DNA from: Escherichia phage MIZ4
Strand: one strand, 5' to 3'
Sequence record: OR167180
DNA: 64,000 nucleotides
Below are positions 49,325-54,424 of this stretch, piece by piece; position 1 is the stretch's first letter; each line of letters begins with the position of its first letter. Under the pieces are notes generated by a model. It was not told the DNA's origin. It ran no database searches and saw only the letters and a list, made by a program, of their open reading frames with translations. The position numbers were made by a program, and so were the translations under genes.

Positions 49325-50557
49325 TTATACTGCCATTTGAGCTGTGATTGCTGGATGGCTTTGATAGTTGTGAATTTTAAAGTCTTTCGGAGTCTTTGTC
49401 AATACCTCATCTAAAGATTTAAATTCCGGCAACTCAATTGTTGGTTTATCAAACGGAACACGGCTTAACTGTTCCATAACTTGATCAAAATGGTTTTTGT
49501 AAATGTGAGTATCTCCACCAGAGAAAATCAGTTCTCCTACCTCAAGATCACACATTTTCGCTATGATGTGAGTTAACAGCGCATAGCTGGCAACATTAAA
49601 GGGCAAGCCCAAAAAGCTGTCTACGCTTCGCTGAAACCACATACAAGACAATTTACCTTCATTGACATAGAATTGCACGAAAGGATGACATACACCTAAT
49701 ACAGCATTATGTGTTCCTTGTACGTTCCATGAGTCAATAATGATCCGGCGATCCGTTGGATTGTTTTTAATTTGTTCAATCACGTTTTGTAACTGGTCTT
49801 CCCAAATCTTCGGGCGATAGACATATTCTTCATCGTCTTTAGTGCTCGATGTGTCTACGTCCATACTAGCAAAGATCGTGGTATCTGGTGCTAAAATATC
49901 CCCACCCAGATAATCACTATCAAGTAGATAACCGAAATAACCATCATCTACCCATTCCTGGAATCCCCACAAGCAATATGCATCATTAACAAAATTAGAT
50001 TGAGTCTTCCAGTGATCTGCTACTAAGAATTGATTATATTCAGAATCAAACTCTTCATAACGCATACCACGCCAGATAGCACATAAACGGTCTTCTGTTT
50101 CATTGGTTGGAGTAAAGTCTTCTACCCACGGGTGCTTAAATGTATGTGTATATTTGCTCTTAACGCGCTTAATTTTGATTTCACCGTGTGGATGAATCGG
50201 TTTGCGTCGCCACGCCATACCATACATATTGCCGACATTATAACCATTGAATCGCAAAGGATTCTTTTCTTTCATATCAAGACAGTTACCGCGCCAAATG
50301 TCGAAGGCTTCTTCGTCAAACTGTCCGCGTGTAATTTCCTGTAAGCGACGGCGGTCAAGTGATCCCTCCATAAACCATAGCAATTCGCCAATTACAGAGG
50401 CTGTAGCCATCTTTTTAGTTGTCAGTAATGGAAAACCCTTGCTTAAGTCAATTCGCATCTCTGCGCCGAATTTAGAGAGCGTACCTACCCCCGTGCGGTC
50501 TTCACGAGGCCAGCCATTATCAAGAACATCACGCAATAGTTTCAAATATTCTTTCAT
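49325..50557 (-). CDS. td: Thymidylate synthase with an in-frame insertion of about 130 aa
   Basis: Conserved TS blocks (DRTGVGT, RRIIIDSWN, FLGLPFNVASYALLTH, C-terminal HPAITAQMAV); 410 aa against 286 aa recalled for T4 Td. Confidence 0.85.
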   Translation of the reverse strand: MKEYLKLLRDVLDNGWPREDRTGVGTLSKFGAEMRIDLSKGFPLLTTKKMATASVIGELLWFMEGSLDRRRLQEITRGQFDEEAFDIWRGNCLDMKEKNPLRFNGYNVGNMYGMAWRRKPIHPHGEIKIKRVKSKYTHTFKHPWVEDFTPTNETEDRLCAIWRGMRYEEFDSEYNQFLVADHWKTQSNFVNDAYCLWGFQEWVDDGYFGYLLDSDYLGGDILAPDTTIFASMDVDTSSTKDDEEYVYRPKIWEDQLQNVIEQIKNNPTDRRIIIDSWNVQGTHNAVLGVCHPFVQFYVNEGKLSCMWFQRSVDSFLGLPFNVASYALLTHIIAKMCDLEVGELIFSGGDTHIYKNHFDQVMEQLSRVPFDKPTIELPEFKSLDEVLTKTPKDFKIHNYQSHPAITAQMAV

Positions 50558-50798
50558 CCCACATCACCTTTTTCTTATTGATTGCTTTCTTACGCAGTTT
50601 TGCTACTGTCTCGTCAATATCGATAAAGACAACGCCACGGTCGAATATAGTAGCAGGTCTTGAGATATCGCTATTTTCTTGCACAGGAAGCCATGATGCG
50701 CTCGCTTCATCATAGAGATATTGTAAACCGTAATAATCTACGGCTACTGCGTAGTTTTCACTGGTAGCCGTCCATAATTGAATAATACCGACTTTCAT
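50529..50798 (-). CDS. Hypothetical protein (89 aa)
   Basis: Start at MKVGIIQ (ATG); overlaps the td start region. Confidence 0.5.
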   Translation of the reverse strand: MKVGIIQLWTATSENYAVAVDYYGLQYLYDEASASWLPVQENSDISRPATIFDRGVVFIDIDETVAKLRKKAINKKKVMWDERIFETIA

Positions 50799-50890
50799 TA
50801 TTGTTCCCGTCCGCAATGTAAGCACCGACTACCAGCAAACATCAAAGATTCACCACAATGTTTGCACTCATAATCTGTAAGAATTTTCAT
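50798..50890 (-). CDS. Possible zinc-ribbon mini-protein (30 aa)
   Basis: Translated by eye: MKILTDYECKHCGESLMFAGSRCLHCGREQ, two CxxC pairs; stop overlaps the next ATG. Confidence 0.3.
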   Translation of the reverse strand: MKILTDYECKHCGESLMFAGSRCLHCGREQ

Positions 50891-51849: not shown

Positions 51850-51877
51850 ATTATACACTATTGCGTTACGCTGTCAA
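51850..51877 (-). promoter_or_regulatory. Sigma70-type early promoter cassette
   Basis: TTGACA-16-TATAAT followed by the CACATATCGAAACAAAGAGAGGA leader. Confidence 0.6.
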
Positions 51878-52423
51878 CTCTTTTTCAAAAGATTTTACGA
51901 TATACATTAAATTTCTAATTTCGGACGGTGGGATTGTCTCTGTCCACCCGTCCGGCATAACTTTTTGCGATACGTGGTGTGTTTTATTACTAAGTTTTTG
52001 TCGAACAATACCCTCTAATTTTAGGGGTATGTTTCCATCTTTAGTTGTTAGCGTATGGAATATAAAGTGACGAACGGAAGACACGCTGGATTGCTGTTTC
52101 ATCCTTTCCTCGGCTTTTTTGTTGGTGATTCCGAACTTATACCCGACAATACAGCCCCAATTATCAACCAGTTTTTGTATATAAAAGGTTCCTGGTTTTC
52201 TTTTATCATAACCTCCTTTTTGAGTGGGACATTTCGGACACTGCATATCATCTAAAGATGCGACATATTTGCCATGAACGCAGCAATCCATACTTAGATT
52301 CTTTTCTCTTGCATTAATATACCCATTAATAAATCCATTGGATTTTACTTTTTCATTATGAGAACAAAATTCATCAATTCGTATATTTGCTGATATAACA
52401 TTTTTTCTTCTCATTCGTTCCAT
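51866..52423 (-). CDS. T5orf172-like (GIY-YIG-related) domain protein with N-terminal Cys cluster
   Basis: 185 aa; CCVHG...CPKCP; GTFYIQKLVDNWGCIVGYKFGITNK resembles the T5orf172 core; domain call tentative. Confidence 0.45.
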   Translation of the reverse strand: MERMRRKNVISANIRIDEFCSHNEKVKSNGFINGYINAREKNLSMDCCVHGKYVASLDDMQCPKCPTQKGGYDKRKPGTFYIQKLVDNWGCIVGYKFGITNKKAEERMKQQSSVSSVRHFIFHTLTTKDGNIPLKLEGIVRQKLSNKTHHVSQKVMPDGWTETIPPSEIRNLMYIVKSFEKELTA

Positions 52424-53827: not shown

Positions 53828-54424
53828 TTAATTGCTTGTCAATACTTTATCAATTATATCTAACAGTTTTGGCTTTCTATTTTCAAATTCTAACATCTCT
53901 TCGGGAGAAATGTCAACTACTTCTGTTTTGTTGAAAAAGTTTGGGTCTATAGCATCAGCAACAAAGTTTCTCGCAAGTGCTGCCGCTTTCTCATGAACAT
54001 ATATTCCCAAATATATCAACTTCTTTCTTTCGACCTGAATATTGGCAACATATTTACCATCTCGTTTATAAAGACTAACACCGATATATTCAGACGATCG
54101 ACCTTTCTGTTTACCCATATTTCTTGAGTTTTGTTGCTCGTTCGCATCTCTCAAGTTTTCAATCCGATTATCTGTTATAATTCGGTTAACATGGTCAACG
54201 TATTTTGGCATGTATCCATGATGCATAAAGAAAATTATTCTATGCTCTTTATGATGTTTACCATCGATACACACCAATCTGTATCCATGACTAGGATTAA
54301 CTCCACCCGCTCTAGATCCGACTTTATGCTTTCTGTTTGTCGATATCTTGCGAATCAGCTTACCGTTATCATATTTAAAGAGTTCATGACAACGAGCATA
54401 CAATTCAGGATCATATGTTTTCAC
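53828..54424 (-). CDS. HNH homing endonuclease with AP2-like DNA-binding domain
   Basis: HGYRLVCIDGKHHKEHRIIF...VDHVNRIITDNRIENLR (HNH) plus YIGVSLYKRDGKYVANI (AP2-like); GTG start inferred; T4 has segG at this locus. Confidence 0.65.
   Translation of the reverse strand: MKTYDPELYARCHELFKYDNGKLIRKISTNRKHKVGSRAGGVNPSHGYRLVCIDGKHHKEHRIIFFMHHGYMPKYVDHVNRIITDNRIENLRDANEQQNSRNMGKQKGRSSEYIGVSLYKRDGKYVANIQVERKKLIYLGIYVHEKAAALARNFVADAIDPNFFNKTEVVDISPEEMLEFENRKPKLLDIIDKVLTSN

Follow-up and report, generated by a model that had tools for sequence, protein, structure and literature searches.

The td gene of Escherichia phage MIZ4 (sequence record OR167180) encodes a ThyA-type thymidylate synthase (TS) in which a long in-frame insert lies between the two parts of the catalytic core, and this insert is the subject of the present analysis. 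Within the 64,000 nucleotides (nt) analysed, hereafter the window, td occupies positions 49325..50557 on the minus strand as a single continuous open reading frame (ORF) of 410 amino acids (aa) plus stop, compared with 286 aa for T4 Td (1tis) and 264 aa for Escherichia coli ThyA. Residues 2-410 of the product matched the Pfam family Thymidylat_synt (PF00303; E 1.1e-84, profile positions 1-266, 284 bits against a cut-off of 24.3), and the protein likewise exceeded the threshold of TIGR03284 (283.6 bits, cut-off 108.35). The td region is 100% identical to that of Escherichia phage MIZ5 and 97-99.8% identical to those of RB49 and other Krischvirus genomes. Because 58 Krischvirus genome records (including RB49, JSE and Phi1) encode a Td protein 90-100% identical to this one, the insert is not an artefact of a single assembly.

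An earlier reading of the DNA made from its letters alone (the sequence-only reading) had placed the extra length at 49802-50203 (residues 119-252, KPIHPH...YRPKIW), as one insertion between the WR motif and the DQ...NPTDRR block, with both catalytic blocks intact. Alignment bore this out. Searches with phmmer against the PDB matched Td residues 1-82 to E. coli ThyA 1-82 and residues 254-410 to E. coli 110-264, and in a joint alignment of the window Td with its T4, E. coli and Lactobacillus casei counterparts (T4 and L. casei sequences identical to 1tis and 1lca), all of the excess fell in one contiguous in-frame block rather than in many small indels. This block, anticipated at ~130 aa, comprises 136 residues (118-253; 49799..50206, minus strand) between WR117 and D254-Q255, one residue wider each way than first proposed, at a site where T4 has 4 residues and E. 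coli and L. casei have 10 each. The N-terminal catalytic core (residues 1-117; 50207..50557, minus strand) ends in YGMAWR, the window's version of YGxQWR, and the C-terminal catalytic core spans residues 254-410 (49328..49798, minus strand). The counterpart of the catalytic Cys (E. coli C146) is found at C290-H291 in an invariant column, and the positions corresponding to E. coli R21, E58, W80, Y94, R126/R127, R166, S167, D169, N177, H207 and Y209 (R21, E58, W88, Y112, R270/R271, R310, S311, D313, N321, H351 and Y353 in the window) are invariant across the aligned enzymes. As judged from these residues, Td is an otherwise complete and presumably active enzyme. Base composition of the insert is host-like (GC 0.400, against 0.412 for the core and 0.407 for the window), and no second copy of the insert module was found elsewhere within the window.

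Given that td is a classic host of mobile elements, the T4 td intron being one example, a block lying in frame inside this conserved enzyme gene might be an intein or mini-intein removed by protein splicing, or an undetected intron. We regard such an origin as the least probable of all the explanations considered. No Pfam Hint or intein match was obtained, and the junctions (WR/RKP, where the insert begins with R118, and IWE/DQ, between E253 and D254) offer neither a Cys/Ser/Thr nucleophile nor a His-Asn pair, on which grounds an intein was rejected; the predicted structure, moreover, appears to extend the core sheet into the insert. There was also no alternative-frame ORF in the insert, and no Rfam family reached its gathering threshold anywhere in the window, which together with the continuous ORF means that td carries no group I intron. 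The sequence-only reading had likewise described the gene as intron-free and the insert as unlike an intein.

AlphaFold2 (AF2) modelled the window Td with a predicted local distance difference test score (pLDDT) of 92.7 and a predicted template modelling score (pTM) of 0.91, in which the insert is predicted to form a two-stranded stalk (strands 118-130 and 245-254) bearing a small knob. The outgoing strand (residues 118-130, RKPIHPHGEIKIK; 50168..50206, minus strand) carries a P.PHG...RK motif that is common to most of the longer inserts described below, and the returning strand (residues 245-254, YVYRPKIWED; 49796..49825, minus strand) leads into the core helix DQLQNVIEQIK. Between them lies a reduced central module (residues 150-235; 49853..50110, minus strand) with a net charge of -14, predicted helices at 153-169, 181-193 and 199-204, and predicted strands at 210-213 and 228-231. 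On the same strand, alignments mark two conserved segments of this module, LWGFQEWVD (49946-49972) and GDILAPDTTIF (49871-49903), and LLDSDY (residues 211-216; 49910..49927) as the degenerate counterpart of LDKDY in long inserts and free-standing relatives. According to this confidently predicted fold, the block is a folded unit and not a random loop and, if a relic, is still a real domain.

Alone, the insert matched no Pfam family, and its best PHROGs match, labelled 'HNH endonuclease', was marginal (E 0.13). Beyond the 58 Krischvirus records, translated searches of phage genomes (tblastn) recovered matches in Klebsiella phage phiKp_21 (E 2e-12) and in Vibrio phages D69 and D148 (E 2e-6), together with weak ones to genes labelled as HNH endonuclease, AP2 or DNA-binding. 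The matches in phiKp_21 (517 aa), Vibrio phage D69 (477 aa) and Bacillus phage Kioshi (548 aa) are themselves thymidylate synthases with a bigger insert at the same site, a 491-aa version is encoded by Enterococcus phage 163, and various long inserts in turn matched window positions 49790-50206 at E 1e-11 to 1e-18. The full form of the insert measures ~245-285 aa. Whole-protein searches revealed a graded series. Forms of 406-418 aa were 87-44% identical, others measured 469-559 aa, with one of 613 aa, and at the shorter end stood 299-aa forms whose mini-insert has 23 residues and 276-aa forms with no insert at all. Relatives at 87-51% identity sit in T4-like synteny. A profile of the inserts matched 14,626 cluster representatives at E <= 1e-3, and among the best 150 of these, 58 of the 88 proteins longer than 330 aa were thymidylate synthases. 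Insert-bearing thymidylate synthases constitute at least 58 protein clusters at 50% identity, and the insert is fixed in Krischvirus and T4-like relatives without being general to thymidylate synthases, that is, it is not a standard feature of the enzyme. Judged by these comparisons, what the window carries is a reduced version of a far larger element that is widespread in phages.

Alignment resolved the long inserts into five parts: an N-linker (consensus P.PHG...RK.Y.D.Y), a beta-rich domain, a central module (LY..W..M..R.Y......Y..V.VC.RW.NF.NF..D...LWGFQE.VDS.Y...LDKDYYGS..YSP.TC.F....N), a C-terminal domain (GFK.Y......F.S...LQ..RGL.RKA.LP) and a C-linker (hVVRP.I..DQ). Of these five, the linkers and the central module survive in the window insert, the module in shortened form; neither the beta domain nor the C-terminal domain is left.

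Public records mislabel several insert-bearing synthases, as 'HNH endonuclease' in Vibrio phage D69 (L002:2644-4077) and as 'hypothetical protein' in phiKp_21 (L001:2455-4008) and several Krischvirus genomes (Cognac/Whisky/Brandy records). P0027 and many relatives of 299-300 aa carry the 23-residue mini-insert KHIERKNFGPAHLGGDRLAVDQTE at the same site. It contains an IERK motif similar to the N-terminal stalk of the element, and may be either a deletion scar or a precursor hairpin. The same module was also seen, often internally or twice, in ~30 proteins of 330-724 aa (P0250, P0251, P0254, P0259, P0273, P0278 and others) that have no thymidylate synthase domain and whose only other Pfam matches, in nine, are NUMOD-like. 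These could be multi-domain endonucleases or insertions into unrecognised host proteins.

The long inserts also connect td with a family of free-standing phage genes. A long insert matched PHROG 2081, 953 and 374, each labelled 'HNH endonuclease' (E 1.7e-33, 1e-25 and 2e-20), and found matches in 1435 phage records, mostly free-standing genes among the matches listed, including an ICP1 gene directly after DNA polymerase and genes in 115 Rheinheimera 'Barba' phage records. The free-standing relatives inspected encode 224-272 aa and contain no Pfam domain save an occasional AP2 (found in relative pW2) or I-HmuI NUMOD-like domain (PF00847/PF22083). These genes belong to the group reported as IPA-HNH homing endonuclease genes (ICP1 gp59, gp115/116 and gp209), in which an HNH domain too divergent for Pfam, detected by HHsearch, is followed by AP2; they are abundant in Barbaviruses, they often adjoin DNA polymerase genes, and T4 is without them (Barth, Dunham & Seed 2023, PMC10448857). 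That abundance matches the 115 Rheinheimera phage hits of the long insert; thymidylate synthase goes unmentioned in the same study (PMC10448857).

Homology between the window's core module and the IPA-HNH genes was recovered directly, by comparing the short-insert profile with the free-standing profile (hhalign E 3e-6, probability 88%), and through a chain via the long inserts (E 2e-12, then 2e-15 and PHROG 1.7e-33). In a 15-sequence alignment, long inserts were collinear with entire free-standing proteins from the initial Met, so that full-length td inserts and IPA-HNH proteins share one domain order as well as the central module. An AP2/NUMOD-like C-terminal domain is present in the long td inserts and the free-standing relatives, whereas the window copy lacks this segment by deletion, as it lacks the N-terminal beta domain and the DKD...N motif. 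The two also differ in setting: IPA-HNH genes are free-standing beside essential genes, whereas the module in the window lies inside td, in frame, and forms part of the enzyme. In Vibrio phages D432, D116, D42 and others, the module match spans two annotated features, 'HNH endonuclease' and 'DNA primase', and the endonuclease gene may there abut or intrude into the primase gene.

Surface inserts are tolerated by thymidylate synthases, and the block might accordingly be seen as a lineage-specific expansion of a variable TS loop whose resemblance to endonucleases is coincidental or reflects capture in the reverse direction. L. casei has 50 extra residues nearby, and eukaryotic thymidylate synthases have a longer loop after YGFQWR, at the present insert site; neither is endonuclease-related, and both illustrate that the surface near YGxQWR accepts extra residues with activity kept. 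The L. casei insert, however, lies upstream of YGxQWR and is thus at a different site, alignment having ruled out a shared one, and the similarity of the window block to long inserts and to the free-standing family is both significant and collinear. The 14,626 cluster representatives, with many short stand-alone proteins among the best matches, also make an origin inside the enzyme unlikely. We therefore consider loop expansion very improbable, if marginally less so than splicing.

Reduction of the element occurred more than once. In a tree of the TS core, the RB49-type short forms made up one clade (bootstrap 89), the 417-418-aa short forms were nested in the phiKp_21 clade of long forms (bootstrap 98), and the short forms were jointly monophyletic in 0 of 100 bootstraps, from which it follows that the same core was reached by reduction at least twice. 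The losses extend to the candidate active or metal site of IPA-HNH proteins (LDKD...N plus Cys/His). All long inserts and free-standing proteins in the 15-sequence alignment carry DKD, and among 88 long relatives DKD and the downstream Asn are nearly invariant. Of the TS inserts, 34 of the 36 that exceed 160 aa have DKD, and none of the nine that measure 111-160 aa does. In the window, DSD stands in place of DKD (LLDSDY), the helix with the conserved Asn is deleted, and other residues occupy the Cys/His positions known from the free-standing family (RY for RC, VA for VC and TT for TC), so the candidate site is missing. Charge has also changed: the window insert has a net charge of -11 (-14 in its core) and an isoelectric point (pI) of 4.8, whereas most long inserts have a pI of 8.3-9.6 and all free-standing proteins one of 8.6-9.4. 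With DKD, Asn, Cys/His and positive charge gone, binding or cutting of DNA would not be expected.

These losses weigh directly on whether the insert might still work as a homing endonuclease and so drive the inheritance of td when infections are mixed. Homology to a putative homing endonuclease family would favour this, as would the mosaic structure of td alleles around the insert. In a comparison of the window with P0002 (L009:4001-5221) and L014 (JSE), the N-terminal core was identical to that of P0002 at 116 of 117 residues (99%), the insert was 86% and the C-terminal core 82% identical, a pattern that points to recombination breakpoints within the insert or close to it. However, neither flanking domain is left, the DKD-to-DSD change, the deleted Asn helix and the lost Cys/His positions affect the putative active site, and a core with a charge of -14 is unsuited to DNA binding. 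Continued activity is accordingly highly improbable, somewhat more so than loop expansion.

Evidence that the full element may have moved comes from closely related alleles with and without it. P0024, which has the insert, is 552 aa long, and P0029, which lacks it, 276 aa; the two have cores that are 89% identical, are sisters in 99 of 100 bootstraps of the core tree and lie on syntenic phage contigs (dihydrofolate reductase then TS, with the same upstream genes). Their DNA differs by one clean block of 837 nt with a 5' flank identical at 300 of 338 nt, and the codons YGVQWRDWRGVDQL are the surroundings of the insertion site in insert-less td of the P0029 type. Such clean presence and absence suggests that the element is, or was, mobile. 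Thymidylate synthases of Bastille-like Bacillus phages are reported to measure 289-311 aa (PMC4528723), and Kioshi, of the same subfamily, has the 548-aa form.

The insert is evidently under purifying selection, as gauged from substitution patterns. Relative to an 87%-identical homologue, the ratio of non-synonymous to synonymous rates (dN/dS) was 0.129 for the insert, where 22 changes were non-synonymous and 30 synonymous, and 0.106 for the core; within Krischvirus, dN/dS was 0.07-0.25 for the insert against 0.005-0.04 for the core in most pairs. Relatives with cores 62-72% identical have inserts 50-55% identical, and LWGFQEWVD and GDI.APDT.IF are almost unchanged across them. Constraint of this kind raises the possibility that a remnant of the same origin was co-opted, with its acidic knob serving as a protein-protein contact (for instance in the T4-type deoxynucleoside triphosphate-synthesising complex, or with a basic partner) or as a modulator of activity or stability. 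In keeping with this, the ratio is near that of the core (0.13) in the most informative pair, LWGFQEWVD and GDILAPDT.IF are strongly conserved across relatives just 50-60% identical, the fold is predicted with confidence, a block that is basic in most long forms has become strongly acidic in the window, and two lineages were separately reduced to the same retained core. Yet no partner, motif or structural analogue indicates a specific function, the insert changes 5-10x faster than the core at non-synonymous sites within Krischvirus, and the conservation is explicable by the need of a domain embedded in an essential enzyme to fold. Co-option thus seems to us rather unlikely, albeit the most serious of the competing explanations.

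Taken together, the comparisons describe a block at one site that is homologous to long td inserts and to IPA-HNH genes, is reduced and has lost the conserved motif of both. Residues 118-253 are therefore probably what is left, in degenerate, in-frame and non-splicing form, of a homing-endonuclease-like element related to the IPA-HNH genes, and the block in the window is best read as an entrenched relic, dead as a nuclease, within an enzyme that is otherwise intact. Of the two origins offered in the sequence-only reading, a grafted accessory domain or a degenerate mobile-element remnant, homology to the full-length td inserts and IPA-HNH genes favours the latter.

The full element would consist of a beta-rich N-terminal domain, a divergent HNH-like core and a C-terminal NUMOD/AP2-like domain, carried on a two-stranded beta stalk. 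Occupying the surface loop just after YGxQWR, it would be translated with the enzyme and stay in the mature protein, needing no splicing because the loop tolerates a protruding domain. Like an intein or an intron endonuclease, it would spread among td alleles by cutting empty ones and being copied into them during repair. In the RB49/Krischvirus lineage, both outer domains would then have been deleted and the core would have lost DKD, the downstream Asn, the Cys/His positions and its positive charge, leaving a stalk and an acidic, mainly helical knob on the enzyme. The relic most likely persists because imprecise deletion would harm an essential enzyme and because an occupied site offers no target to active relatives.

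Several observations weigh against interpreting the insert as an endonuclease relic. The core of the module, searched with a long insert and the free-standing relatives, has no Pfam or NCBIfam match, and its match to PacI is borderline; a sequence-profile search of the PDB with the module gave only a chance match (E 0.6), Foldseek comparison of a long-insert model with the PDB yielded nothing below E 0.3, and hhalign against the canonical HNH_3-AP2 gene elsewhere in the window was not significant (E 0.0077, probability 5%). Our own tests are thus only suggestive as to HNH identity of the core, and nuclease activity and homing are putative for all members, td-embedded or free-standing. The confidence of the AF2 model draws on an alignment rich in insert-bearing homologues, and the difference between P0024 and P0029 could represent precise loss rather than gain. 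Purifying selection near that of the core would fit a newly useful domain, so that 'relic' refers to origin and not necessarily to present role.

A further and more tentative proposal, which we hold possible rather than probable, is that the long forms represent a previously undescribed class of selfish element, in which a complete homing endonuclease sits in the td surface loop, in frame and never spliced, as a working enzyme-nuclease chimera that invades, decays and is lost in turn; the RB49-type block would then be a copy that has decayed, become fixed and possibly turned useful. In such a chimera, the synthase dimer might pair two nicking domains.

To our knowledge, homing endonucleases have been thought to persist inside genes only through removal as introns or inteins, otherwise lying between genes or splitting them, and the ShiLan element is the only recent report of a non-splicing insertion that we know of. 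We found no description of the td insert, for RB49-group or other thymidylate synthases, in the searchable literature, which does not cover all subscription journals. The nearest precedent is the ShiLan-type insertion elements of phage DNA methylase genes (Arsenault, Gosselin & Gogarten 2025, PMC11855218). Both are homing-type insertions in a phage enzyme gene, read through in frame, without intein or intron features and at a presumably tolerated loop, but they differ in host gene and nuclease subfamily, and the ShiLan HNH endonuclease is encoded out of frame in the insertion whereas the host frame encodes the endonuclease-like domains of td inserts. A hidden out-of-frame ORF of the ShiLan kind was ruled out, the td frame alone being open across the window, phiKp_21 and P0024 inserts. 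Inteins with homing endonuclease domains and mini-inteins likewise lie in frame at conserved sites of essential enzymes, are present or absent among close alleles and show endonuclease decay that fits the homing cycle; unlike them, the td insert has no Hint domain or splice residues and is retained in the mature enzyme, which obliges the host loop to accommodate it for good. The T4 td group I intron with I-TevI shares the host gene, in T4-like phages, and a mobile element at a conserved part of it, but splices as RNA, encodes a GIY-YIG endonuclease and occupies a different td site.

The td inserts would constitute a second and much larger non-splicing case, comprising at least 58 protein clusters at 50% identity. 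Full element, reduced core and empty site form a natural series within one well-understood enzyme that could be used to study how selfish DNA turns into a permanent protein domain, and the loop after YGxQWR appears to be a place where thymidylate synthase permits a domain to be inserted. The copy in the window is a fossil, and the wider family that it revealed is the more interesting result.

The minus-strand gene order around td runs 59, a small HNH-AP2 gene, 32, two small ORFs, frd, a small ORF, td and nrdA; the order around 59, 32, frd, td and nrdA is the usual T4-like arrangement. A 98-aa ORF (50529-50825, minus strand) with no family match shares 29 nt with the start-codon end of td, and the annotations of JSE, JK32, G2248 and SFHK24 list its counterpart as a hypothetical protein of 89 aa. 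On a T4-like metagenomic contig with a short-insert Td (L012:4689-7876), a 237-aa ORF that has a faint I-HmuI NUMOD-like match interrupts nrdA, leaving ORFs of 476 aa and 324 aa; Aeromonas phage Aeh1 reportedly has a similar ribonucleotide reductase with genes in pieces. A 185-aa ORF without a Pfam match lies between gene 32 and frd (51866-52423, minus strand), where the relatives L009 and L010 have 340-405-aa ORFs with CapR/DUF4379 matches. CapR is a DNA-binding domain linked to homing endonucleases, and the gene 32-frd interval consequently looks like another variable slot. Finally, the free-standing 198-aa gene between genes 59 and 32 (53828-54424, minus strand) encodes a canonical HNH_3-type motif, VDHVNRIITDNRIENLRDANEQQN, with an AP2-like segment after it; its counterpart is present in L010 (Pfam HNH_3) and missing from L009, which marks it as a variable homing-endonuclease gene.

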